NCBI GenBank assembly: GCA_016867375.1
Contig: VGJQ01000004.1
Span: 1-46,722, forward strand
Length of the DNA stretch: 46,722 bases
Direction of reading: 5' to 3'
Source: Candidatus Kaiserbacteria bacterium
GTDB taxonomy: Bacteria; Patescibacteriota; Minisyncoccia; Phycocordibacterales; UBA2100
Shown: in pieces, positions 1,977 through 42,001 of the stretch
How the letters are laid out: every line of letters begins with the position of its first letter
How positions within the stretch are numbered: the stretch's first letter is position 1
Translations under genes and position numbers: made by a program
The notes under the pieces: model-generated
What the model was told of the DNA's origin: nothing
Database searches by the model: none
What the model saw: the letters and a program-made list of their open reading frames with translations, nothing else

Positions 1977-3557
1977 TTAGGCGCGGTTGATGAAGATGCG
2001 CGGCATCTCATCGGCATTGTGAGCCTGTGCGATCACCATGGTGTCGCTCGTCGCATTGCGGACTTCGCGTGTCGGGAGATCGGTGAGTACCGTGCTCGGA
2101 GTGCTTGAAGTCTTTTTCTCTGCGACTGCTGTTGCCGCGGTCTGCGTCTTTGCGGGCTGTGCGCGGCGGCTGCCTGCAGTCCCGAGAGCCAGTGCGAAGC
2201 CTCCCTTGTAGTAGACCGCGAGGTAGGCTGCGGCGATCGCGAAGGAGAGAAGAGCTGCCCAGTAGAGTCCGTTGCCGACAGGGCCGAAGTCAAAGCCAGT
2301 GTACGGGATCTGCGAGAGCGAGACGTACGGCTTCACAGGGACCTGCGGCGGTACATATACCGGCGGCTGAGGCACATAGACAGGTGGCTGGTATACCGGC
2401 TGAGCCTGATAGACCACTTGGGTCTGGCAAGTGCCGGTGCCCCCTTCGCCGTAGACGGTCATCGTGTAGATCGTCGTGCCACTCACGGGATAGACCGTCG
2501 TCGAACCGTTGGGATTGACCGAGCCGACATTTGGGCTGATCGATGCGGTGTATGCATTGGTCGAGGACCATGAGAGCGTCACCGGGCTATTGCTGTAGCT
2601 GTTGTAGTAGGAGCTTGAGACCGAGATCGTGCAGGTCGGTGCCTGGCGATTTGCCGGGAAGGTGTAGTTGATCAGCTGTTGGATCGGGGTCTGGAAGACC
2701 GGAGCCGGGTTGTTGTTGATGTTGGTGTTGGTGATAGTGATCGGCTGGCCGTTGACCGTGATCGTGTTGGTGTTGTTGCCTGTCGTATTGGTGTTGGTCG
2801 TCGTATTTTTGATCGGACCGACGGAAGTGCTGTTGTTGATCGGACCTGTCGACGCCGATGCAGTCGTGTTTTGAGTCACCGTCTGATTGCTCGGGATGCC
2901 CGGAGTTGACGGTGTGATGGAGATGGAGATCGGGTTTGACTGCGTCTGAGTGTTGCCCTGTGACTGAGACTGAGTCTGAGTCTGGCCCACCGGACCCGAA
3001 GGGGTGCCGACGACCACAGGACCTGCCATAGAATGTCCGAAGCCGGAGGGCCAGCCCGTATTGATCGGCCAGGTCGGGATCGGGCCGCTGTCTACAAAGT
3101 AGCCGCCGCCAGTCGCATATCCACCGTATCCGCCATAGCCTCCAAATCCGCCTATGCCACCGTAGCTTGGGGTGTAGGAGTACATCGGGGAAGCATAGTT
3201 TCCGTAGTTATAACCACCAAAGCCGTAATCCGGGTACGAGGTATCGTAATAGTCGTTGTACGCAGAGGTGTCGTAATAATCGTAGTTGTATGCGGACGTA
3301 TCGTAATAGTCGTTGTACGCAGAGGTGTCGTAATAATCGTAGTTGTATGCGGACGTATCGTAATAGTCGTTGTACGCAGAGGTGTCGTAGTAGTCATAAC
3401 TGCAACATCCGCCGTCGTATGAGCCGCCGTCGTAGCCATACGCGGAGGTATCATAATAATCGTATTGCGCGAACGCGACCGAAGGAATCATGCCGCCAAG
3501 GGCAAAAATCGCTCCGACAGACATGATCGCAATTTTCTGTGAGTAAGTATTGTTCAT
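1977..3557 (-). CDS. Secreted Tyr/Asp-repeat surface protein with Ig-like domain and C-terminal IPYTG sortase-type sorting signal
   Basis: Signal peptide ending VAFA, YDYYDTSAY repeats, T/N-rich linker, PKD/Ig-like segment (VTLSWSSTNA...TTIYTMTVYG), then LSQIPYTG, a TM helix and basic residues. Confidence 0.8.
   Translation of the reverse strand: MNNTYSQKIAIMSVGAIFALGGMIPSVAFAQYDYYDTSAYGYDGGSYDGGCCSYDYYDTSAYNDYYDTSAYNYDYYDTSAYNDYYDTSAYNYDYYDTSAYNDYYDTSYPDYGFGGYNYGNYASPMYSYTPSYGGIGGFGGYGGYGGYATGGGYFVDSGPIPTWPINTGWPSGFGHSMAGPVVVGTPSGPVGQTQTQSQSQGNTQTQSNPISISITPSTPGIPSNQTVTQNTTASASTGPINNSTSVGPIKNTTTNTNTTGNNTNTITVNGQPITITNTNINNNPAPVFQTPIQQLINYTFPANRQAPTCTISVSSSYYNSYSNSPVTLSWSSTNAYTASISPNVGSVNPNGSTTVYPVSGTTIYTMTVYGEGGTGTCQTQVVYQAQPVYQPPVYVPQPPVYVPPQVPVKPYVSLSQIPYTGFDFGPVGNGLYWAALLSFAIAAAYLAVYYKGGFALALGTAGSRRAQPAKTQTAATAVAEKKTSSTPSTVLTDLPTREVRNATSDTMVIAQAHNADEMPRIFINRA
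3241..3389. repeat. 57-bp tandem repeat (about 2.6 copies) encoding YNYDYYDTSAYNDYYDTSA
   Basis: Identical units start at 3241, 3298 and 3355. Confidence 0.9.
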
Positions 3558-11168: not shown

Positions 11169-13295
11169 TTAGATATCCAGTGTCGCTTCTTTGGCGTGCG
11201 AGGTGATGAATGATTTGCGGGCCGGGACGTCGGTACCCATGAGCATATCGAAGATGCGATCGGCATCCTGTGCATCGTCGATCGTGACTTGCTTGAGGAC
11301 GCGGTTGGACGGATTCATCGTGGTCTCGGAGAGTTCTTCGGGGTTCATCTCGCCCAAGCCTTTGTAACGCTGGACGGAGATTTTTGCTTGGCGCACCGGA
11401 GCTTTGGCGGAGGCGGCTTCTTCCTCGGTCTCCATCTCATCCGACTCCGCTAAAGCTTCGTCGGACACAGCGGGCATATCCTCGCCGACGTATTCGATGC
11501 GCTGCTCGTCGGTATATGCGTAGAAGACTTCTTTACCCTTCTTGATCTTGTAGAGTGGCGGCTGTGCGATGTAGACGTACCCGCCGTCGATCACGGGGCG
11601 GAAATGACGATAGAAGAGTGTGAGCAGAAGGGTGCGGATGTGCGCTCCGTCGACATCGGCATCGGTCGCGATGATGATCTTGTGGTAACGGAGCTTGGAG
11701 AGGTCGAAGATGTCGCCGATTGCGGTACCCATCGCGACGACGAGATTCTTGATTTGTTCGGAAGCGAGCATTTTGTCGAGGCGGGCGCGCTCGATGTTGA
11801 GGATCTTGCCGCGCAGCGGGAGGATCGCTTGCGTGCGGCGATCGCGACCCATCTTGGCGCTGCCGCCTGCCGAATCGCCCTCTACGATGAAGAGTTCGGA
11901 TTCTTCGGCCGACTTCGTCTGGCAGTCGGCAAGCTTGCCCGGGAGGGTCATGCCGTCGAGCGCTCCTTTGCGGAGGATCGAATCCTTGGCGGCTTTGGCG
12001 GCTTTGCGGGCCTTCATGGCGAGCGCTGCTTTGCCGATGATCTCACGCGCTTCGTCCGGATGCTCCTCGAGAAATGCGGCGAAAGCTTCGCTAAAGACAG
12101 TCTGTGTCGCGCTCAATGCCTCCACCGAGCCGAGCTTACCCTTGGTCTGTCCTTCAAACTGGATTTCGCGCATCTTGATCGAGACGACTGCCGTGAGGCC
12201 TTCGAGGACGTCGTCGCCGGTGAAATTATCGGAATCCTTTCCTCCGGAGGAGGATCCGCCTTTGGCGGAGCCGCTACCTTTTGCAGCGGTGTTGAGCGTG
12301 CGCGTGAGGGCTGTCTTGAAGCCGGTGATGTGTGTGCCGCCTTCGGGATTGTAAATATTATTTGCAAATGCACTGATGCGTGCGGTGATGTCGTCGACGT
12401 ATTGCAGAGCGATCTCCACCTGTACGCTGTCTTTTTCACTGCCGCCTGTTGGGATGAAGTCTTTTTCGACGTAGAAGATCGTCTTGTGAAGCGGGGTCTG
12501 ATGGCGGTTCTGGAAGCCGACGAGACTGCGCAAGCCACCCTCAAAGTAGAAGGTCATTGACGGTGCGTCGATCCCAAGATCGCGCATCCAGAAGGTGTCC
12601 TTCTCGTCGAGTTTGTCGATGTCGCGGCCTGAGAGATCGCGCATGTCGATGATGGTGATGCGTAGGTCCTTGACCAGATAAGCCTGCTGGCGGAGATGAT
12701 TGATGATGGTCTGGAAATGGTATTCGATGACGGAAAAGATCGACGGATCGGCATCGAAGGTGATGATGGTGCCGGTGCGATCGGAGGGGCCGACTTTCTT
12801 TACCTGCGCGACAGGCTTGCCGCCGTTTTTGTATTCCTGCACGTACTTGCCGCCATCGCGATGGACCTCGGCGCGCATGTAGGTGGAGAGCGCATTTACC
12901 ACTGATGCACCAACGCCATGGAGACCGCCGGAGACTTTGTAGCCCTCGCCGCCGAATTTGCCGCCCGCATGAAGCACGGTGAGGATGGTCTCGAGTGCGG
13001 AGACTTTTGTCTTGGGGTGGATGTCGACCGGGATGCCGCGGCCGTTGTCGGTGACGCGGATACGATTGCCCGGCAAGATCGCGACTTCGATGTCGTCGCA
13101 GAAGCCGCCCATCGCTTCGTCGCGTGAGTTGTCGAAGATTTCCCAGACGAGGTGGTGGAGGCCGTCGATTCCGGTGGTACCGATGTACATGCCCGGGCGG
13201 CGGCGCACTGCCTCGAGCCCCTCCAATACCGTGATGTCGGAAGCATCGTAATGACCCGCTTTTTTGGTCTCCTTTGCTGGTGCTTTCTTGGCCAT
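11169..13295 (-). CDS. gyrB: DNA gyrase subunit B
   Basis: LEGLEAVRRRPGMYIG, HAGGKFG, SGGLHGVG, EGDSAGG, LPLRGKILN, TDADVDG, QRYKGLGEM. Confidence 0.95.
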   Translation of the reverse strand: MAKKAPAKETKKAGHYDASDITVLEGLEAVRRRPGMYIGTTGIDGLHHLVWEIFDNSRDEAMGGFCDDIEVAILPGNRIRVTDNGRGIPVDIHPKTKVSALETILTVLHAGGKFGGEGYKVSGGLHGVGASVVNALSTYMRAEVHRDGGKYVQEYKNGGKPVAQVKKVGPSDRTGTIITFDADPSIFSVIEYHFQTIINHLRQQAYLVKDLRITIIDMRDLSGRDIDKLDEKDTFWMRDLGIDAPSMTFYFEGGLRSLVGFQNRHQTPLHKTIFYVEKDFIPTGGSEKDSVQVEIALQYVDDITARISAFANNIYNPEGGTHITGFKTALTRTLNTAAKGSGSAKGGSSSGGKDSDNFTGDDVLEGLTAVVSIKMREIQFEGQTKGKLGSVEALSATQTVFSEAFAAFLEEHPDEAREIIGKAALAMKARKAAKAAKDSILRKGALDGMTLPGKLADCQTKSAEESELFIVEGDSAGGSAKMGRDRRTQAILPLRGKILNIERARLDKMLASEQIKNLVVAMGTAIGDIFDLSKLRYHKIIIATDADVDGAHIRTLLLTLFYRHFRPVIDGGYVYIAQPPLYKIKKGKEVFYAYTDEQRIEYVGEDMPAVSDEALAESDEMETEEEAASAKAPVRQAKISVQRYKGLGEMNPEELSETTMNPSNRVLKQVTIDDAQDADRIFDMLMGTDVPARKSFITSHAKEATLDI

Positions 13296-15166: not shown

Positions 15167-17044
15167 CTAGCGGATTTCAAAACCCTTTGCAGAGAGCACC
15201 GTTGATACTTTTTGCATGATCAGATTGACCTCTTCGTCGGTGAGGGTCTTTTCAAATGACTGGAAGATCAGTCGGAATGCGAGCGAAGTCTTGTCGGCCT
15301 TGGTGAAGGTGTCGAAGAGCGCAACGCGTTGCAGTAATTCCCCCGATTCTTTTTTGAACACGTCTGAAATGTAGGATCCGACGGATCCTACATTTGCTTC
15401 GTGGTGTAATGTTGACGGAGTCCAGAAGGCGATATCGCGGACGATATAGGGATAACGTGAATACGGTGCATAACGAATCGCGGCTGATGTGGGTAGATTA
15501 ATGTAGGACATCGGATGTCCTACATTTTGCGTGTGCTCGGAGAGAGGTTTTTCGGATGCTTTTCCTTTTTCGGTGATGGTGCCGACCATCTGTATTTCTT
15601 TGGCGTCAGGCCATACGGTCCCTATCTCGAAGAGTTTGATCTCTTTGAGTCCGAGCAAGTCCTTGTTTGGGATATTTTTCTTGAGCGCCTCGGTGAGTCC
15701 GTCGATGAGTGTCGTGCGCAGGTACGGGCGTACGCCGTCTACCTTGTTGGCGACGACGCGTTCGCCCTTTTCCGCAAAGACACTGGTGAAGACCTCGCTG
15801 TAGCCTTGCGCAATCAGGTCCTCGCGGATACGTTCGGCTGCCGCGAAGCTGTGATTGATCTCTGGTAGGGCGGTGCTCGGTGGTAAGGGTGTCGAGGGGA
15901 CTTTGTCGTAGCCTAGGTGGCGGCCAACTTCTTCGATGAGTTCTTCGGGAATCGTGAGATCGAGGCGCTCAAAGGGGGGTGTGACGGTGAAGACGGGAGC
16001 CGGTGATAAGTCTGACTTATCACCATGGTGATAAGTCTGACTTATCACCGGCTCTTGCACGAAAAGTAATCCGAGGCGGGTGAATACGTCGGACACTTCG
16101 TCGGTGGTGATGCTCATGCCAAGGGTTTTGTTGATATGGTCGAGAGTGACAGAGACCGGCTTGATCTCCTGCTTTACGGGATAGGCATCAGTGAAGCCGA
16201 CGATCTCCCCACCAGCGATCTGCTGGATTAGGAGTACCATGTCGCGCATGGCATAGGCTGGCCATTCGGGCGACATCCCCTGCTCGAAGCGTGCCGATGC
16301 ATCAGTGCGGAGCTTCATGTGTTGTGCGGCTTTTCGGACCGCAGCGCCATCGAAGCTCGCGGCTTCGATGATGATGTCTTTGGTGTCTTCGGTGATGGAT
16401 GCAGGCATACCGCCCTTTACTCCCGCGACGCCGATTGCTGTGCTGTCATTGGAGATGACGAGTATCGATGGATTGAGCGTGTATTCTTTCCCGTCGAGTG
16501 CCAGTAATTTTTCCCCTTCTCTTGCAGGGCGGATGTCTATTTGATATTTTTCGTTTTTTGTTTTTAATTTTCCTGCATCAAATGCGTGGAGGGGTGCTCC
16601 GATATTGAACATGACGAAGTTGGTCGCGTCGACGACGTTGTTGATCGACTTCTGTCCCATCTTTTCCAGGTATGAGACGAGCCACTGCGGCGAGGGTGCT
16701 ACCTTGACATCGCGGATGTATCCGGCGATGTAGCGATGGCAGCGCGGGTCGTCGATTGATACCGAGACCGCGTCTGTCTGCGGTGATAAGTTTAACTTAT
16801 CACCGAGTGGGTGATTTTTGAGGGGGATGTTCAAGATCGCCGATATCTCTTTGGCAATGCCACGATATGAGAGGCAATCGTGCCCCCTATTGGCGGTGAC
16901 CTTTACATCGAGGATATGATCATCGCCATGCTGCTCGATCCCGTCGATCTCAAAGACGTGGAAAGTGAGCGCATCGGCGAGGGTGTCCGCATCGGGAAGC
17001 GGAGTATCAAAGAAAGCCTGGAGCCATGCGCGTGAGATTTTCAT
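15167..17044 (-). CDS. pheT: Phenylalanine--tRNA ligase beta subunit (short, no OB/B2 domain)
   Basis: TANRGHDCLSYRGIAKE, INNVVDATN, PLHAFD, LRTDASARFE, RLDLTIPEELIEEVGRHLGY, C-terminal FDX-ACB domain. Confidence 0.95.
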   Translation of the reverse strand: MKISRAWLQAFFDTPLPDADTLADALTFHVFEIDGIEQHGDDHILDVKVTANRGHDCLSYRGIAKEISAILNIPLKNHPLGDKLNLSPQTDAVSVSIDDPRCHRYIAGYIRDVKVAPSPQWLVSYLEKMGQKSINNVVDATNFVMFNIGAPLHAFDAGKLKTKNEKYQIDIRPAREGEKLLALDGKEYTLNPSILVISNDSTAIGVAGVKGGMPASITEDTKDIIIEAASFDGAAVRKAAQHMKLRTDASARFEQGMSPEWPAYAMRDMVLLIQQIAGGEIVGFTDAYPVKQEIKPVSVTLDHINKTLGMSITTDEVSDVFTRLGLLFVQEPVISQTYHHGDKSDLSPAPVFTVTPPFERLDLTIPEELIEEVGRHLGYDKVPSTPLPPSTALPEINHSFAAAERIREDLIAQGYSEVFTSVFAEKGERVVANKVDGVRPYLRTTLIDGLTEALKKNIPNKDLLGLKEIKLFEIGTVWPDAKEIQMVGTITEKGKASEKPLSEHTQNVGHPMSYINLPTSAAIRYAPYSRYPYIVRDIAFWTPSTLHHEANVGSVGSYISDVFKKESGELLQRVALFDTFTKADKTSLAFRLIFQSFEKTLTDEEVNLIMQKVSTVLSAKGFEIR

Positions 17045-18243: not shown

Positions 18244-18299
18244 AAAAGCAGTATAACGTAGCGAGTCATGGATTGAAAACGGATGGAGCGAGTTGGTAA

Positions 18300-18388
18300 G
18301 GGCTCGTCCACAAATCACATACTCGTTATTTGTGGACTACACTTATGGGTCCGTTCATTTGGTGTTGAACTTATTTATGAACGGGACC
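18300..18388 (+). mobile_element. MITE-like double-hairpin element, copy 1
   Basis: GGGCTCGTCCACA...TATGAACGGGACC flanked by TAA/TAA. Confidence 0.8.
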
Positions 18389-18474
18389 TAAGTGTTTTGC
18401 CGTCTTCGCAGCCGCGACGGCGGCGAGATTGAGCGCTGGGCCAGCAGGCCCAGATAGCGACGGCAAAACACTTA
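18389..18474. repeat. Branched hairpin with 16-bp terminal inverted repeat
   Basis: TAAGTGTTTTGCCGTC ... GACGGCAAAACACTTA enclosing two GC-rich stems. Confidence 0.7.
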
Positions 18475-22295: not shown

Positions 22296-22345
22296 AAGGA
22301 AAGTTTGTAGTTATTAGTTTTAAGTTTACAGTAAAAAATCCCTAA

Positions 22346-22428
22346 GGGCTCGTCCACAAATTAACGTACCCGTTATGTGTGGACTACACTTATGGGCCCG
22401 TTCATTAGTGAGCCTCATGAACGAGACC
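22346..22428 (+). mobile_element. MITE-like double-hairpin element, copy 2
   Basis: Same termini as copy 1, TAA/TAA flanks, between rpsB and tsf. Confidence 0.8.
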
Positions 22429-24091: not shown

Positions 24092-24196
24092 CAGCAGCGG
24101 TGTTTCTGGGGCGTATGATACATTGTAAATATAAAAAAGTCAATACCCGCCGTTGTATGTCTGTCCCATCATCATAAAAAGCATGTCCGTCCCTAA

Positions 24197-24285
24197 GGGC
24201 TCGTCCACATATAACGTACCCGTTATTTGTGGACTACACTTATGGGCCCGTTCATTTTGGGTTGAACGTATGTATGAACGGGACC
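24197..24285 (+). mobile_element. MITE-like double-hairpin element, copy 3, inserted into the loop of a hairpin
   Basis: Flanks CATGTCCGTCCC-TAA [element] TAA-GGGGCGGACATG. Confidence 0.85.
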
Positions 24286-24326
24286 TAAGGGGCGGACATG
24301 TGTATATTTCTATCTGCTCGATCCTA

Positions 24327-26293: not shown

Positions 26294-26344
26294 GTGGCGA
26301 GATCATATCACACATAGGCCTGGTTCTGCAAGTATCACCAGTAG

Positions 26345-26434
26345 GGGCTCGTCCACATATACCGTACCCGTTATGTGTGGATTACGCTTATGGGCTCGTT
26401 TATTTATGTAATGAAGTTGTGTATGAACGGGCCC
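26345..26434 (+). mobile_element. MITE-like double-hairpin element, copy 4
   Basis: Same termini, TAG/TAA flanks. Confidence 0.8.
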
Positions 26435-26501
26435 TAAAGACAGGCGCTGTCATTCTGATACACGTACCTGTAGGCGACTTACCACCTTTTTGAAACGAAG
26501 A

Positions 26502-28258: not shown

Positions 28259-28513
28259 TTACAAAAGTACGATTGCGCTGTTGTGGGAGCATTCGAGCAC
28301 ACCGTTGTCGATCGGGAAGGTATGCCTTTCGCCGCCCATGACGCGCACGGCGATGGTACCCTTTTTGAGCGTCGTCACAAGCGCTGCATGGTGCGGGAGG
28401 ATCGTCAGCTCGCCCTCGCTGCCGGGCACAGTCGCTGCAAGTGCAGGGCCGTCGAAATGCGTTTTGCTGACGCTCGCGATCACCAGATTGAATGTGGGGG
28501 GGTAGTTTTGCAT
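28259..28513 (-). CDS. atpC: ATP synthase epsilon subunit (N-terminal domain only)
   Basis: VPGSEGELTILPHHAALVTTLKKG; follows atpD. Confidence 0.92.
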   Translation of the reverse strand: MQNYPPTFNLVIASVSKTHFDGPALAATVPGSEGELTILPHHAALVTTLKKGTIAVRVMGGERHTFPIDNGVLECSHNSAIVLL

Positions 28514-28596
28514 AGTGATTAGCGACTAGCCAATAGTGATTAGATTTTTTGTAGGTATCTTTCTTAAGAATCTTACATTTCACGAATGGCTAAACC

Positions 28597-30054
<1,458 letters not shown>

Positions 30055-31835: not shown

Positions 31836-33404
31836 TTATTTCGTCGCAAACAATTCCGGATGTGCGAGCTTGAATTCTTCCATTGCGCGGCCCAGGCTTT
31901 TTTGGGAGTCTTCGGAGACGAGGCCGGTCTCTTTGATCTCTGCCAGGGTCTTCGCGTGTTGGCCGTCTAGGTAGTCGATGAATTGTGCTTCGACGGCGGT
32001 CACCTCTTTGACCGCGACATCGGCGAAAAATGCGTGCGTGGCAGCGTAGAGGATGGCGACCTGCTTTTCAAACGGCAGCGGTTCGCCGTTTTTCTGCTTC
32101 AAGACTTCGACCATGCGCTGGCCGGATGCGATGCGCTCGGCGGTCGCCTTGTCGAGGTCTTGGGCAAACTGCATGAAAGCTTCGAGTTCGCGGAACTGTG
32201 CAAGCTCAAGCTTGAGCTTGCCGGCGACGGATTTCATAGCCTTGGTCTGCGCATCACCGCCGACGCGTGAGACCGAGAGACCGACGTCGATCGCCGGGCG
32301 CACTCCCTTGTTGAAGAGGTCGGTCATGAGGAATATCTGGCCGTCGGTGATCGAGATCACATTGGTCGGGATGTATGCCGAGATGTCGCCTTCGAGCGTC
32401 TCGATGATCGGAAGTGCGGTGAGTGATCCCCCACCCTTCTCTTCGCTGAGGCGACACGCGCGCTCGAGGAGACGTGAATGCAGATAGAAAATGTCGCCCG
32501 GATACGCTTCGCGGCCCGGCGGACGACGCAGGAGGAGCGAGAGCTGGCGGTAGGCGGTCGCCTGCTTGGAGAGGTCGTCGTAGATGACGAGCACGTCTTT
32601 ACCGGCGTCCATAAAATATTCGCCGATCGCCGCGCCGGTGAATGGTGCGAGGTATTGGAGTGTCGCCGGTGCCGAGGCCGAAGCATCGACGATGATGGTG
32701 TATTCGAGTGCGCCCGCGTCGCGCAGCTGCTGCATGATCCGCGCAGTCTTGGATTCCTTTTGGCCGATGGCGACGTAGATGCAGATGGGGCGTGTGTCTT
32801 CAGGACCATTCTTTTGATTGATAATCGTATCTATCGCGATAGTGGTCTTGCCGGTCGATCGGTCGCCGATCAGGAGTTCGCGCTGGCCGCGGCCGATCGG
32901 GATCATGGCGTCGATCGCCTTGATGCCGGTCTGGAGCGGGACGGAGACGTGTTTGCGGTCGATCACGCCGCTTGCCTGGCGTTCCACGGGCATCATGGTC
33001 GGATTCTTGAAAGGACCCTTGCCGTCGATAGGTTCGCCGAGCGCATTGACCACGCGGCCCAGAAGCTCTTCACCAGAGGGCACCATGAGCACCTTGCCGG
33101 TCGATTTGACCGTCATGCCTTCGGTCACGCGCGCGGTGTCGCCGAGGATCGAGGCACGGACACCATCCTCTTCGAGGTTGAGGATGAGGCCCAGTAGGGT
33201 GGACGTCTGATGCATCGAGTCCTCGAGCTTTTTGCCCTTACCCTCTTCGAATACGATGACTTCGCTCATCACCGCTTTGGACAAGCCATCAATCGCGACG
33301 ACGCCGTCGCCCACCGCCGTGACGCGACCGACGTGCTGGTGATCGTGCGTGGGCGTGTAGCCTTCGATTTCTCTGACGATTTTCTCTACGATTGATGGGT
33401 CCAT
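31836..33404 (-). CDS. atpA: ATP synthase F1 alpha subunit
   Basis: [45 protein letters not shown]. Confidence 0.98.
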
Positions 33405-33458
33405 AGGGGTAGTGATTAGTGAATAGTGGCTAGTGATTAGTAAAATGCAGAGGAATAC

Positions 33459-33860
33459 TTATGTGGTGGCGGCTTGGTAGATGGCGAGGAGGTGCTTTTT
33501 GTAACTGGCGTCGATGAGATGCCCTTGGCCCTCAAGACGCCATCCGCCGATGAGCGATGCGTCGATATGTGTCTCCCCTTCTTCGCCAAGGCTACGCAGG
33601 GCAGGGATGTTGAGTTTTTCAAGAGCAGCTAGTGCTTCTTTACGCGCATGCGCTTCGTCGCCTTTGTGCGCGATGGTAAGCGTCATGGTGCTTCGCGTGC
33701 GCTCGCGCGCGGCGAGCCGCTCAAATGCGCGGGCGATGCGCGGCATAAGCTCGGTACGGCCCTGGGCTTCTAACTGGGTGTGTATCGCATGCACGGCCTT
33801 CTCGGGCTCCATGCCGCCCTCGATCAGTTGCCACAAAGCTTGTGCGTACGCGTTTTGCAT
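33459..33860 (-). CDS. atpH: ATP synthase delta subunit (short)
   Basis: YAQAL, DASLIGGWRLEG...IDAS; between atpF and atpA. Confidence 0.9.
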   Translation of the reverse strand: MQNAYAQALWQLIEGGMEPEKAVHAIHTQLEAQGRTELMPRIARAFERLAARERTRSTMTLTIAHKGDEAHARKEALAALEKLNIPALRSLGEEGETHIDASLIGGWRLEGQGHLIDASYKKHLLAIYQAATT

Positions 33861-33946
33861 AGTGATTAGTGATTAGCCAATAGTGAATAGTGTCTCATAA
33901 ATCCTGAATGTTTTTTCGTATTTGTATTCATACCAGTGGCTATTCC

Positions 33947-34396
33947 CTAGTGGCTATTCCCTCTCAATATCTTCTCGGCGGCGAGCATCGCGGTGCGGGC
34001 GATCTGGCGCTCACTCTCTTGGAGTGCGAGGCGCTGGGCCTCTTCTGCGCGTGCCTGCGCCTCGCGCATGGTTGCCTCGGCTCGTGCTTCGGCGGCCTTC
34101 ATGATCTCGTTGCCCTTCTCATCGGCGCGTGCGCGAGCGGCAGCGGCGAGCGCTTCGGCATCGCGCGCGGCAGCACCGATGATCTGCTCCCCTTCTTCCT
34201 GGGCGGCTAGAAGATTGCGGTCCGCCTCCTCGGCTTTGCGCACACCCTCGGCGATCTTGGCGCGGCGCTCGTCGATCAGCTTCATCATCGGCTGATAGAG
34301 GAAATAGGTAAGTGCTCCAACAAGGATGCCAAAATTGATCCCCTGGATGATAAGGAGTCGCCAATCGATGCCGAATGCTGAGAAGAGTTGGTGCAT
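33947..34396 (-). CDS. atpF: ATP synthase b subunit
   Basis: QGINFGILV...LYQPMMKLIDERRAKI followed by an Ala-rich coiled coil. Confidence 0.95.
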   Translation of the reverse strand: MHQLFSAFGIDWRLLIIQGINFGILVGALTYFLYQPMMKLIDERRAKIAEGVRKAEEADRNLLAAQEEGEQIIGAAARDAEALAAAARARADEKGNEIMKAAEARAEATMREAQARAEEAQRLALQESERQIARTAMLAAEKILRGNSH

Positions 34397-34424
34397 AGTG
34401 GCTAGTGGCTAGTGGCTAGTGGCT
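34396..34424. repeat. Heptamer array (TAGTGGC)x4 abutting the atpF start
   Basis: Seen directly; related arrays at 33860-33891, 33410-33440, 28513-28543, 25954-26035 and 19762-19870. Confidence 0.85.
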
Positions 34425-34458
34425 AAAAAGCCGCAAGCCAAAAAGCCGCGCAGTACGG

Positions 34459-40815: not shown

Positions 40816-41298
40816 TTAACCTCTTGTTTTGGATACATTACAGGTTTGTATAAACTCGAACAGTTGATCAAATCCCTGGAAATAATCCTCGTTATGCTTC
40901 CGCGCATCAATAAGGTATTTTTGTATTTCTTGGTTTTTGTAGGCCTTTTCAGTCAGATCAGAAAAGTTCGCGCATGTGGAATCAGAATCTAGCAAGTTTC
41001 TTGCTAAGTTAAATCCAACATCGTTTAAATCGTTAAGAAAATCATCTATCTCGTCGGACGTAAATTTTTTAAGGATGGGGTTATGGTGCTCAATAGCCAT
41101 TGAAATTTTCCTATTCGAACCTGAGTTGAGTCTATCGTAATACAGAAGGGATAATTGATTTTTCCGACTCAACTGATTATTGGCGATGTCGTTTATCTGA
41201 TATGCAGAAAAACCAACCCCGATAACAACAACAAATACTTGGAAGACATCAAGGAATCTTTTTATGTATTCCCACTTTAAGTATCTTTTGAGACTCAT
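40816..41298 (-). CDS. Low-GC hypothetical protein with N-terminal TM (DUF4760-like)
   Basis: AT-rich ORF starting just past the tRNA-Glu 3' end; FLNDLNDVGFNLARNLLD. Confidence 0.65.
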   Translation of the reverse strand: MSLKRYLKWEYIKRFLDVFQVFVVVIGVGFSAYQINDIANNQLSRKNQLSLLYYDRLNSGSNRKISMAIEHHNPILKKFTSDEIDDFLNDLNDVGFNLARNLLDSDSTCANFSDLTEKAYKNQEIQKYLIDARKHNEDYFQGFDQLFEFIQTCNVSKTRG

Positions 41299-41302
41299 GT
41301 TG

Positions 41303-41374
41303 TGACCTCACGGGGAATCGAACCCCGCTTTGATCCGTGAGAGGGATCTGTCCTAGCCGATAGACGATGAGGCC
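41303..41374 (-). tRNA. tRNA-Glu(CUC), CCA not encoded
   Basis: GGCCTCATCGTCTATCGGCTAGGAC, anticodon arm GATCC-CTCTCAC-GGATC, T-loop GTTCGATTCC. Confidence 0.96.
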
Positions 41375-41616
41375 TTTGTGTCGATTTTCTCAAATAAATC
41401 TTTGCGGGCACGAGCGGTTTTCTTGAGGAAAATCTCCCGTTTCCTTGCCATAGTTTTATCATTATATTGTTCTGTGTACAACAGGCTCCATGGTCGATAC
41501 CCCTTTGTCGACCGCACTTCCCCTCTATTATGTTCCTGCAGTCGATTCTCGACATCATGAGATATGCCGATGTAATGACGACTGCTTTCGTTGATGAGGA
41601 TGTAGAGATGCCACAT
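41353..41616 (-). CDS. Stand-alone GIY-YIG nuclease (UPF0213-like)
   Basis: LYILI...HYIGISHDVENRLQEHNRG..RSTKGYRPW...ARKREIFLK. The last codons (ASSSIG-stop) overlap the tRNA 5' end. Confidence 0.92.
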   Translation of the reverse strand: MWHLYILINESSRHYIGISHDVENRLQEHNRGEVRSTKGYRPWSLLYTEQYNDKTMARKREIFLKKTARARKDLFEKIDTKASSSIG

Positions 41617-41620
41617 AGGG

Positions 41621-41730
41621 AACCGTGTCCTCCAGAGGAGGATCCGCCTCCGGCGGAAGAGGGATCTGTCCTACTTGCCCGCCTTTGGCGGGGCCGATAT
41701 CCTCCGAAGGAGGACAGGGACGATGGGGCC
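41621..41730 (-). pseudogene. Duplicated 5' half of tRNA-Glu interrupted by three hairpin insertions
   Basis: Removing 41628-41657, 41674-41692 and 41700-41718 gives GGCCCCATCGTCTATCGGCTAGGACAGATCCCTCTCACGG, 39/40 identical to the tRNA 5' end. Confidence 0.9.
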
Positions 41731-42001
41731 CTTCTTCGCCAAGGCTACGAAGGGCACAGCCTTCCTCGCATAGCGAAATAAGAACTCTTGCAAAATAACA
41801 CAAAAAAAGAACGCGAGCACTCTGCCCGTGTTGTACATTGTAGAAAGTCAGACTTTCTACAATGCGTAAATATTGCAGAAAATGAAAGCGGCGGCGAAGC
41901 AAGCTTTGCTATTTGACTACTGGTTGCCTTTGCTGCATGCTGGGCGCAGTTTGGTATATCTGTGGTGACGTAAGGCTATCACAAGGGGCATCAAAGACAC
42001 C

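Follow-up and report, generated by a model that had tools for sequence, protein, structure and literature searches.

The gyrB gene of Candidatus Kaiserbacteria, an ultra-small and uncultured bacterium, contains 30 bases that fold as two hairpins and are read in frame, and the locus raises the question of what these bases are, how they came to lie within a housekeeping gene and what that gene makes of them. The window analysed is the whole of contig VGJQ01000004.1 (46,722 nucleotides), and its relevant features are collected in the table below. The 30 bases are likely a copy of a miniature non-autonomous mobile element, made of two GC-rich hairpins joined at GGATCC, which is filtered by selection when it inserts within genes and is then translated as a flexible loop. 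Mobility is suggested by the presence and absence of copies at matching sites; neither the genome comparison nor the assembled contigs revealed a transposition event, an excision product or polymorphism within a population.

Table. Features of the window that bear on the gyrB insert
Feature	Position	Strand	Basis or remark
gyrB, 708 aa, host gene	11169..13295	(-)	Pfam DNA_gyraseB, HATPase_c, Toprim, DNA_gyraseB_C
30-nt double-hairpin element in gyrB	12240..12269	(-)	sequence, fold; in frame
atpD copy, perfect 30-nt palindrome	29950..29979	(-)	in frame; absent from the preliminary description
Intact tRNA-Glu(CTC)	41302..41374	(-)	ARAGORN; Rfam RF00005, 51 bits; downstream of the GIY-YIG gene, overlaps its 3' end
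GIY-YIG nuclease gene, 87 aa	41353..41616	(-)	Pfam PF01541, E 1.1e-14
tRNA-Glu 5' remnant (pseudo-tRNA)	41623..41730	(-)	sequence reading; acceptor stem to just past the anticodon
Non-coding copy of the element	41628..41657	(-)	between anticodon nucleotides 35 and 36 of the tRNA-Glu 5' remnant

The gyrB insert and its family

The gyrB element, TCCTCCGGAGGAGGATCCGCCTTTGGCGGA, is a perfect double hairpin. Its ten codons, TCC GCC AAA GGC GGA TCC TCC TCC GGA GGA on the coding strand, encode SAKGGSSSGG, which forms residues 343–352 of GyrB. The preliminary description had placed this peptide in the transducer loop before the conserved FTGDDVLEGL, and it does lie there, with KDSDN intervening. Within the transducer domain, the insert occupies a loop that is variable and lies about 30 residues ahead of the QTK motif, and the alignment of GyrB to PDB chain 8s7k_B has a gap at this position. 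Residues 341–355 are predicted as coil with pLDDT below 50 in an AF2 model that is itself weak (mean pLDDT 64.9, from a 34-row alignment). Folded as single-stranded DNA, the gyrB region has a minimum-energy structure of two adjacent 6-bp stems with 3-nt loops, while its folding energy is unremarkable (z -1.54; 17 of 200 shuffles fold equally well).

Within the window, the sequence is found once without mismatch, in gyrB, and once with three mismatches, in the tRNA-Glu remnant, against a chance expectation of 0.00 from 100 dinucleotide shuffles. The two copies agree at 27 of 30 positions and differ at base 7, in loop 1, and at bases 23–24, in loop 2, so that the match first noticed between gyrB and the pseudo-tRNA insert, with differences only in the loops, holds. 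Logan contigs of three sequencing runs reproduce the gyrB element without difference (X1, X3 record 22 and X4 record 32). Run X1 is possibly the source of the assembly, while X3 and X4 are independent, and the element is thus not an artefact of a single assembly. These Logan contigs show neither an indel variant nor a joint at the element, and as assembled contigs they drop rare variants.

The gyrB copy belongs to a family defined by the pattern TCCKCC-N3-GGMGGA, which occurs twice, joined at GGATCC, to give 30 nt. The 1.008-Mb genome has nine full copies, located in gyrB, atpD, typA, rplC, gltX, topA, the tmRNA gene and two tRNA-Glu remnants; six of the nine are thus in housekeeping genes. 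The atpD copy encodes ten residues after residue 17 of the beta-barrel domain. When the genome was scanned for structure only, 15 double hairpins of any sequence were found, compared to 1–4 in Markov controls. All 190 copies counted in this study match the one 30-nt pattern, in which 22 of 30 bases are fixed.

Variation among these copies indicates which structure is maintained. A variable stem position pairs with its partner within its own hairpin in 368 of 380 cases, whereas pairing with the base opposite it in the palindrome as a whole holds in 285 of 380. The distinction is sharpest where the variable base is T, which faces an A within the hairpin in 45 of 52 cases and across the palindrome in only 4 of 52. 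Stem changes are compensated within each hairpin, and not across the whole palindrome. Complementarity between the loops is at the level of chance (34 of 190, with 29.6 ± 4.8 expected). The flanks are also biased: of 188 copies, 114 have a T at position -2 or an A at position +2 on both sides, 68 have it on a single side and 6 lack it altogether, where the background frequency is 0.29.

Filled sites, empty sites and reading frames

The gyrB insert is missing in 27 of 29 orthologues, of which 19 are from the same genus and 10 from other families of the order. The gyrB gene of genome G011 carries it at 29 of 30 nt, and that of G004 has an unrelated 17-nt hairpin at the insert site. This hairpin is single-copy in the G004 genome and so gives no sign of a second family. 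A site-specific pattern finds the insert at this gyrB site in 6 of 101 genomes of the genus, and the palindrome is kept in every carrier. The clean ten-residue indel anticipated in the preliminary description is therefore seen, and neither the 29 orthologues nor the 101 genomes broadly encode the same residues with the palindrome disrupted. Where a relative reads N-G-G-G-K at the site, the alignment also allows an indel of eight codons, since the empty site is similar to the 3' end of the element; GGC GGN AAR is a frequent reading of empty gyrB sites. The event at this site may accordingly have been one of 24 nt, or the site may bear a deletion footprint.

Other loci offer less ambiguous comparisons. 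Four sites in G011 (L195:1242, 1803, 6141 and 13770), set against their empty counterparts in G024, G001, G085 or G000, are exact 30-nt indels with no target duplication. The clean empty sites, CTCTTT/CTGTAT, ACGCTT/GAAGCC and GGCTTT/CAATAT (slash at the insertion point), have no homology to the element beyond TT, which pre-exists in them. At the protein level, the AtpD insert corresponds to a clean ten-residue gap in all five same-genus orthologues, and the GltX insert to a ten-residue gap in all four that cover the site. The RplC insert faces a clean gap in three of five same-genus orthologues and a wider gap in one, and RplC of G099 has a degenerate hairpin at the same loop, encoding SAAVGSASGG. 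The TypA insert is missing in five of five same-genus orthologues, in a stretch that is variable, and the copy in the tmRNA gene faces a gap of 31–32 nt in three of three relatives.

Copy number varies widely within the genus, from 0 to 32 per genome, with at least one copy in 36 of the 101 genomes and none in 65; the reversed pattern, used as a control, has no match in any of the 101. Element-rich genomes include G011 (32 copies), G115 (27), G069 (25), G099 (23), G090 (18) and G085 (13), and other carriers include G003 (4) and G014 (2). The 32 copies of G011 compare with one each in G024 and G001, all within a single GyrB clade with 100% support. A scan of prokaryotes of all species gave at least 119 loci, in records labelled as many phyla.

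The reading frame of these copies suggests how they are received by the genes that carry them. The element and its reverse complement are almost the same sequence, and its three reading frames are therefore alike in either orientation. Among the matches listed for the all-species sample, 84 of 126 copies lie in ORFs of at least 150 aa, where the frames are divided 74/6/4 and 74 of 84 copies read SAxGGSAxGG; in ORFs shorter than 150 aa the three frames are equal (14/14/14). The bias is present both in records labelled as CPR (46 of 50) and in other phyla (21 of 25), and the same frame is used by all six full coding copies of this genome and by 19 of 21 G011 copies examined. This supports the early suggestion that an in-frame palindrome is tolerated in coding DNA as a Gly/Ser linker, and the frame bias argues that the element is translated as part of the host protein. 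Programmed translational bypass and a spliced insert, either of which would allow any frame and also internal stops, are contradicted indirectly by the same counts.

The genome comparisons themselves show a unit of exactly 30 nt that is present or missing in unrelated genes, in the tmRNA gene and in tRNA remnants. These observations can be joined in one sequence of events. The element would be recognised as folded single-stranded DNA; an enzyme from another locus would act in trans to copy or move it, and it would land directly 3' of a TT dinucleotide without duplicating its target. Insertions within genes would then be filtered by selection, and the survivors would be those that read Ser-Ala-x-Gly-Gly-Ser-Ala-x-Gly-Gly in surface loops. 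In GyrB, the outcome is probably a translated ten-residue flexible loop, neutral or nearly so, within a transducer loop that was already variable.

The gyrB site itself is harder to account for. Its copy is identical at 30 of 30 bases in G000, G099, G085 and G083, while at conserved four-fold codons elsewhere in these gyrB genes the third positions are only 0.40–0.53 identical. The flanks beside the insert diverge between carriers, and the carriers require at least five changes on the GyrB tree. Such a pattern would be expected if the insert is old, strongly constrained at the nucleotide level and repeatedly lost, or if insertion at this specific site has recurred; simple random transposition accounts poorly for both the identity and the distribution of carriers.

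Perfect conservation of the gyrB copy in four lineages, where nearby silent sites are near saturation, is what would be expected of a functional nucleic-acid signal kept by selection, whether bound by a protein or acting in mRNA stability, pausing or processing, and whose spread would reflect recruitment of a useful motif. The compensated stem changes, including variants in G003 and G056, and the placement upstream of a GIY-YIG gene in six of six orthologues (see the next section) would suit such a signal as well. However, a signal of importance would hardly be missing from 65 of 101 genomes of the genus and nearly so from G024 and G001, the near relatives of G011. The element is found in unrelated genes, in tmRNA and in tRNA remnants that are dead; non-coding DNA shows no preference among the frames, and the bias within genes is that predicted by filtering at the protein level. 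An intrinsic terminator was rejected specifically, since a T run precedes and an A run follows the hairpins on both strands. A selected signal is thus considered unlikely.

It has also to be asked whether any unit moves at all, as copies could arise by a mutational process at sites that already resemble the element, either through template switching at a quasi-palindrome or, after DNA uptake, through gene conversion of short patches from other copies. The empty gyrB sites that resemble the 3' end, and the other or degenerate hairpins at the same loops in gyrB of G004 and RplC of G099, are consistent with this, and self-correction of hairpins would yield compensated stems without selection. Yet such a process would have to produce 190 copies of a single 30-nt pattern in unrelated genes and many labelled phyla, including sites that share only TT with the element, and the differing flanks of the gyrB carriers indicate that no patch of gyrB was co-transferred. 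It is accordingly held to be improbable. A role as a DNA-uptake sequence was rejected by reasoning, as there are tens of copies rather than thousands and the insertions are clean. Finally, an artefact of assembly, binning or contamination comes to mind because GGATCC (Gly-Ser) resembles a cloning linker and all data are from metagenome-assembled genomes, but it is very hard to believe given the exact insert in the independent contigs of X3 and X4, the orthologous gyrB site filled in six species-level genomes with diverged flanks, the reading frames that remain open and a frame bias that extends across records from many projects.

A candidate partner at tRNA-Glu

If the element is moved in trans, the locus of its non-coding copy in the window may point to the enzyme. 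This copy lies 11 nt upstream of the start codon of the GIY-YIG gene, and its insertion point was read by comparison with the intact tRNA-Glu, in whose D arm the GIY-YIG stop codon lies. One hairpin is inserted in the D loop of the remnant and a second in its anticodon loop, and the remnant is not called as a tRNA by ARAGORN or Rfam. At gathering score, Rfam finds two tRNAs only, and between positions 41,000 and 42,200 at E up to 1 it gives only chance-level matches. A second copy of the remnant, 91% identical, is found at C8:2515-2622.

A double hairpin is located 9–40 nt upstream in six of six close orthologues of the GIY-YIG gene, in two different upstream contexts, and in G003 both stems of this upstream element are altered with compensation. 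Close orthologues (E ≤ 1e-25) are found within the genus only in G069, G099, G014, G011 and G003, all of which carry the element, and in none of the 65 element-free genomes, a 5-versus-0 association that is overweighted because the genomes are related. The same layout of gene and element is present in two distant records, L092 and L176. The element-rich genomes G115, G090 and G085 are without a close orthologue of this gene. Presence of the GIY-YIG family as such was rejected as a predictor of the element, as the family is present in 93 of 101 genomes and only the close-orthologue subset tracks it. This genome has three further GIY-YIG genes (on C27, C47 and C15), and the sequences upstream of them are not dispersed repeats in it.

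A transposase of the RAYT/Y1 type was rejected as the partner. In the five element-rich genomes searched, none of 20 Y1_Tnp loci (20 of 44 matches) adjoins the element; at two of them a copy lies about 500 and 1250 nt away. The GIY-YIG gene at tRNA-Glu, the only specific link, is the best candidate for a mobilising partner. A stronger proposal, put forward tentatively and with considerable doubt, is that the element is the passenger half of a two-part system of which the roughly 87-aa GIY-YIG protein at tRNA-Glu is the other half, a GIY-YIG/hairpin counterpart of RAYT/REP. A structure-specific nuclease would in that case move the folded single-stranded element to TT sites in many phyla. Were this so, no smaller element mobilised in trans would be known in bacteria, and essential proteins would recurrently gain new surface loops from it. 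The conserved pairing with the GIY-YIG gene also offers a candidate, open to testing, for a mobility enzyme of a new kind that handles hairpins.

The likely reading, that of a miniature mobile element filtered within genes, has consequences of its own. A 30-base mobile unit whose ends are not distinct from its body would be colonising the most conserved genes of already minimal genomes, and it would survive there by encoding one and the same harmless linker whichever way round it lies. Its copies would form a natural experiment on which loops of GyrB, AtpD, L3, TopA, GltX, BipA and tmRNA tolerate ten residues or 30 bases, and could serve to trace the history of strains and lineages in unculturable groups. 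Annotators and phylogeneticists should be warned that such indels differ from ordinary length variation.

Comparison with known systems

No published description of this element was found in the openly accessible literature. In kind it joins a known class, that of small palindromic repeats tolerated within genes. It is not a MITE, as its filled and empty pairs are exact 30-nt indels without target-site duplication. Single-strand transposition of the IS200/IS605 type relies on ends defined by hairpins, inserts 3' of a short specific motif and makes no target-site duplication. The likeness is one of manner only, as the element has no linked Y1 transposase gene and no distinct left and right ends. 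To our knowledge, 30 nt is far below the size of any IS or of the known miniature IS derivatives.

The REP/RAYT system is comparable in several respects. As described by Di Nocera et al. 2013 (PMC3733652), REPs are likewise short (20–40 bp), GC-rich palindromic repeats whose copy number varies between related genomes, and they are similarly thought to be non-autonomous and handled as single-stranded hairpins. In the GTAG/CGTC-tagged superfamilies, single and dimeric REPs also occur within genes for replication and repair proteins, to which they add short peptide segments. REPs are nevertheless predominantly extragenic, whereas the element is mostly intragenic. The tag described there is missing from the element (it is within 8 nt of an end in 25 of 188 copies compared to 24 of 188 control windows), which has TT and AA flanks instead. 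The element also has a constant length, exactly 30 nt made up of two hairpins, and, with none of the 20 Y1_Tnp loci adjoining it, lacks a counterpart of the RAYT gene flanked by REPs.

Rickettsia palindromic elements (RPEs), to which the preliminary description had likened the insert, are also palindromic repeats found in frame in many unrelated housekeeping genes, where they create new peptide segments compatible with function (PMC10969869). In the same text, RPEs are about 100–150 bp long, fall into ten families, encode a longer conserved peptide and are reported in Rickettsia. The 30 nt of the element specify ten residues of low complexity, and it is present in records labelled as many phyla; these descriptions of RPEs set it apart. 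The likeness thus stands as an analogy, as both are in-frame palindromes, and fails as membership, given an RPE size there of about 150 bp.

A further parallel is offered by the fungal mitochondrial double-hairpin elements (DHEs) of Paquin and Lang, which are described in PMC10085805 as found in chytrids and Schizosaccharomyces and as mostly intergenic. In that description, DHEs are, like the element, small, GC-rich and composed of two adjacent hairpins; they are thought to be mobile, and have no coding capacity and no known enzyme. DHEs occur in rnl and rns, as the element occurs in tmRNA and a tRNA remnant, and both are also found between genes. In both cases copies are identical across species, and for both it has to be asked whether purifying selection or recent spread is the cause. 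Compared by this description of DHEs, the element differs in residing on a bacterial chromosome and in having most of its copies in frame within protein genes.

The gyrB insertion and its site in relatives

The gyrB copy of the element, TCCTCCGGAGGAGGATCCGCCTTTGGCGGA (12240–12269), encodes residues 343–352 of GyrB, SAKGGSSSGG. With up to three mismatches allowed, one further match is found in the window, at 41628–41657 in the pseudo-tRNA, where none is expected (100 shuffles). The two sequences agree at 27/30 positions and all 3 differences lie inside the two 3-nt loops, which bears out the preliminary description in treating them as the same element. Folded as single-stranded DNA, the gyrB copy has an adjacent pair of 6-bp stems as its minimum-energy structure. 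The fold energy by itself is ordinary (z −1.54), so the case for the element is built on its recurrence. The element is covered with zero differences by independent Logan contigs of sequencing runs X3 and X4, as it is by those of X1, the run that is probably its source.

In the protein, the insert falls in the loop preceding the conserved TGDD motif, where the alignment with the best PDB match, gyrase B chain 8s7k_B, is gapped. A weak AlphaFold model (mean pLDDT 64.9, from a shallow alignment of 34 rows) places residues 341–355 in a low-confidence coil between two helices. Among 29 GyrB orthologues (19 from same-genus genomes and 10 from other families of the order), 27 are missing the segment, and the alignment thus agrees with the earlier view of SAKGGSSSGG as an insert. 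The gyrB of G011 carries the element at the same codon with 29/30 bases identical. In G004 (L011), the same GyrB loop holds an unrelated in-frame 17-nt hairpin with a 7-bp stem (CTTCGAC/GTCGAAG) and a 3-nt loop, which is single-copy within that genome.

A site-specific pattern finds the gyrB element in 6/101 genomes of the genus: the window's own genome (G000), G011, G085, G083, G099 and G056. A GyrB tree inferred after masking the insert columns (quick IQ-TREE run, LG+G4, support by SH-aLRT only) separates the carriers into three positions: G000 by itself, G099 together with G056 (support 94), and G011 with G085 and G083, within a clade of support 100 to which G024 and G001, both lacking the insert, also belong. 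This distribution requires five or more state changes. The insert is identical at 30/30 positions among G000, G099, G085 and G083; the remainder of gyrB is 71–73% identical between G000 and the other three, and identity at the third positions of conserved four-fold codons is 0.40–0.53. Perfect conservation of the gyrB copy thus goes together with saturation of silent sites elsewhere in these lineages. The codons flanking the insert vary from carrier to carrier, so no patch of gyrB was carried along with it. The G056 copy differs at 5 positions; its second hairpin has a compensated stem change (TCCGCC/GGCGGA vs TCCTCC/GGAGGA in the others), and the first carries a T-C mismatch that is not compensated. 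Many empty gyrB sites read AAY GGN/GGC GGN AAR and resemble the 3′ end of the element. Given this resemblance, the event could, at the gyrB site only, also be drawn with a length of 24 nt; alternatively, the empty forms could be footprints left by deletions.

Copies in other genes and their reading frame

The G000 genome (1,008,099 bp, 50 contigs, 53% G+C) contains 15 adjacent pairs of 6-bp/3-nt hairpins, compared to 1–4 in five Markov controls, and 9 of the 15 belong to the 30-nt element family. Six copies occur in Pfam-confirmed housekeeping genes (gyrB, atpD, typA/bipA, rplC, gltX and topA), all six in one common frame. The three non-coding copies are found in the tmRNA gene and in a near-identical pair of tRNA-Glu 5′-half remnants, one in the window and one on contig C8. 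The tmRNA copy is a 31–32-nt insertion after the conserved GTCATAAAAT, and it is missing from 3/3 relatives' tmRNA genes (G018, G011, G099). The ten residues are missing from the same-genus orthologues of AtpD (5/5), TypA (5/5, in a variable stretch), GltX (4/4 of those covering the site) and RplC (4/5, the exception being G099 with SAAVGSASGG at the site). Half or degenerate copies exist on C18 and in a XerC-like integrase gene on C7, where they suggest decay of old insertions.

Because the element and its reverse complement are almost the same sequence, it offers the same three frames from either orientation. These include SAxGGSAxGG and (F/S)PP(K/E)ADPPxAE, and in most copies all three are free of stop codons. 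Among the prokaryote-wide matches listed (126 copies), those in ORFs of ≥150 aa split 74/6/4 over the three frames, vs 14/14/14 in shorter ORFs. The bias holds among the matches listed both in CPR-labelled records (46/50) and in other labelled phyla (21/25). Of the 32 copies in G011, 21 were examined: 19 read as SAxGG within ORFs of 139–1246 aa, and the other 2 lie in short ORFs and use a different frame. Splicing or bypass of the insert would leave no such filtering by frame, and the bias therefore indirectly favors translation. The simplest reading of these sequences is that the element would be translated and that only the flexible linker would be tolerated. The frame split also supports the earlier interpretation that the palindrome is tolerated in coding DNA as an in-frame Gly/Ser linker.

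The pseudo-tRNA and the GIY-YIG gene

Features of the window and of G000 contigs, and empty sites in relatives
Feature	Position or genome	Strand	Remarks
gyrB	11169–13295	minus	708 aa; Pfam DNA_gyraseB, HATPase_c, Toprim, DNA_gyraseB_C
tRNA-Glu 5′ part (pseudo-tRNA)	41730–41623	minus	acceptor stem to just beyond anticodon
D-loop hairpin-pair insert of pseudo-tRNA	within 41658–41718		~45 nt; CCCGCC-TTT-GGCGGG and TCCTCC-GAA-GGAGGA, spacer between; also in C8 remnant
Small CCCTTC...GAAGGG-type hairpin	~41729–41756		just 5′ of pseudo-tRNA; similar hairpin at equivalent place in G069
Near copies of small hairpin	33576–33603; C12:4365–4386
GIY-YIG gene	starts 11 bases beyond element	minus	87 aa; PF01541, E 1.1e-14
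Intact tRNA-Glu(CTC)	41374–41302	minus	D arm contains stop codon of GIY-YIG gene
Module	41302–41730	minus	tRNA-Glu 5′ remnant, double hairpin, GIY-YIG gene, intact tRNA-Glu
tmRNA gene with element	C20:11273–11691 (L181 1774–2192)	minus	Rfam RF00023, 109.9 bits
XerC-like integrase gene	C7:26547–28499 (L187)		two degenerate half copies, GGGSASDG and SAGGGSLSS
~96-nt repeat family	18297–18392, 22339–22406, 24194–24289, 26342–26437		two internal hairpins; three to four copies in 8 kb; looks MITE-like
23-nt perfect palindrome GGTGATAAGTCTGACTTATCACC	16002–16049, 16782–16804		three copies, two tandem; look operator-like
Tandem repeats	3238–3464		spacing alternates 27 and 30 nt; probably a repetitive coding segment
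Decamer arrays, TAGTGATTAG / TAGTGGCTAG-like	28505–28543, 33402–33440, 33852–33890, 34388–34426, nearby		several intergenic places
Empty site CTCTTT/CTGTAT	G024		filled in G011 and G085
Empty site ACGCTT/GAAGCC	G024		filled in G011
Empty site GGCTTT/CAATAT	G024, G000, G085		filled in G011
Empty site GAATTT/CTTTGT	G001		filled in G011

In the pseudo-tRNA, the element separates anticodon nucleotides 35 and 36. Five more genomes of the genus show the arrangement of a GIY-YIG gene with tRNA-Glu, in most cases close to tRNA-Ser(CGA). The GIY-YIG family is found in 93/101 genus genomes, so its presence does not discriminate. Close orthologues (E ≤ 1e-25, identity ≥56%) are found only in G069, G099, G014, G011 and G003, all five of which have the element, and in 0/65 element-free genus genomes. 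A double hairpin lies 9–40 nt upstream of 6/6 close genes, the window's included, and of 0/24 more distant paralogues. Both stems of the G003 hairpins are changed and compensated; in G014 one stem is changed and one loop has 4 nt. The tRNA remnant is present at three of the six genes and missing at three. Five of the six extend into a tRNA-Glu gene, and the other stops 13 nt short of one. In G014, ARAGORN reports the tRNA gene as a tRNA-Gln, 93 nt long and internally duplicated. The distant records L092 and L176 from the prokaryote-wide scan likewise have the element followed by a GIY-YIG gene.

The association is statistically weak because the genomes are kin. The element-rich genomes G115 (27 copies), G090 (18) and G085 (13) have no close orthologue, which argues against strict dependence of the element on GIY-YIG. 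Element-rich genomes commonly carry Y1/RAYT-like genes: five such genomes give 44 matches, and at none of the 20 loci examined among these does the element lie beside the gene.

Anatomy, probable movement and comparison with known systems

Among 190 non-redundant copies, the one stem position that varies (G or T) forms a pair with its same-hairpin partner in 368/380 cases and with its partner across the 30-nt palindrome in only 285/380. Where this position is T, the partner is A within the hairpin in 45/52 cases and across the palindrome in 4/52. The loops are complementary in 34/190 copies, compared to 29.6 ± 4.8 expected under independence. This means that the conserved unit is two separate hairpins and not one long palindrome, which points to DNA in single-stranded form. 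A is the last base of loop 1 in 95% of copies, and T is the first base of loop 2 in 94%. The flanks are T-rich on the 5′ side and A-rich on the 3′ side: among 188 copies, T at −2 or A at +2 marks both sides in 114, a single side in 68 and neither side in 6 (background 0.29). The element has no GTAG/CGTC tag, such a tetranucleotide being about as frequent at its ends (25/188) as in control windows (24/188).

In two syntenic regions of 15.5 kb, G011 (32 copies) and its close relatives differ at four sites by exact presence or absence of the 30 nt, with the target not duplicated. The empty sites already have TT, which is therefore part of the target and not of the element. Across the genus, the pattern (≤1 mismatch) occurs in 36/101 genomes, with 0 to 32 copies per ~1-Mb genome, and the reversed control pattern matches in none of the 101. 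A prokaryote-wide scan for exact matches, with one genome per species, finds at least 119 loci. By the records' own labels, the matches listed include, within the CPR, Saccharimonadota (at least 17), Doudnaibacteriota (at least 6), Kaiseribacteriota (at least 4) and others, and outside it Omnitrophota and Gammaproteobacteria (at least 11 each), Kiritimatiellota and Lentisphaerota (at least 4 each), Ignavibacteriota and Planctomycetota (at least 3 each), and more. These are metagenome-bin labels and may be wrong, yet one Ignavibacteriota match lies on a 1.63-Mb contig. In L095, L110 and L143, labelled Ignavibacteria, the element occupies one common place in a C-terminal domain ending ...SGVYFYRL, presumably akin to a type IX secretion sorting domain; here it may spread with the paralogous domain rather than by insertion. 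In L065 (labelled Kiritimatiellae), two copies share longer identical flanks, ...ARNDNKDGL and KFLCIE..., and there the element belongs to a longer repeated unit.

The finding is real and the preliminary interpretation holds: the most fitting description is a miniature double-hairpin repeat, probably mobile and probably translated as a ten-residue linker. Its insertion signature of hairpins, a short T-rich target and no duplication recalls IS200/IS605-type single-strand transposition. No description of the element was found in a full-text search of mostly open-access articles.

Insertion without target duplication sets the element apart from MITEs. RPEs are ~150 bp long, with 44 in-frame insertions in Rickettsia conorii (PMC10969869); the likeness proposed in the preliminary description stands for an in-frame palindromic repeat and fails on size, the element being 30 nt. 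In several species, genes for replication and repair contain GTAG-/CGTC-tagged REPs, single or as dimers (PMC3733652); the element differs from the REP/RAYT system in having no tag, in having no RAYT gene beside it at the loci examined and in being mostly intragenic. Fungal mitochondrial double-hairpin elements (DHEs) have a two-hairpin design, also lie in structural RNA genes, and have identical copies across species (PMC10085805); the element shares the design, the structural RNA gene sites and the same puzzle of cross-species identity. Intragenic palindromic repeats are a class already on record, of which the 30-nt element is a variant, and by analogy it would work most like a REP or a DHE.
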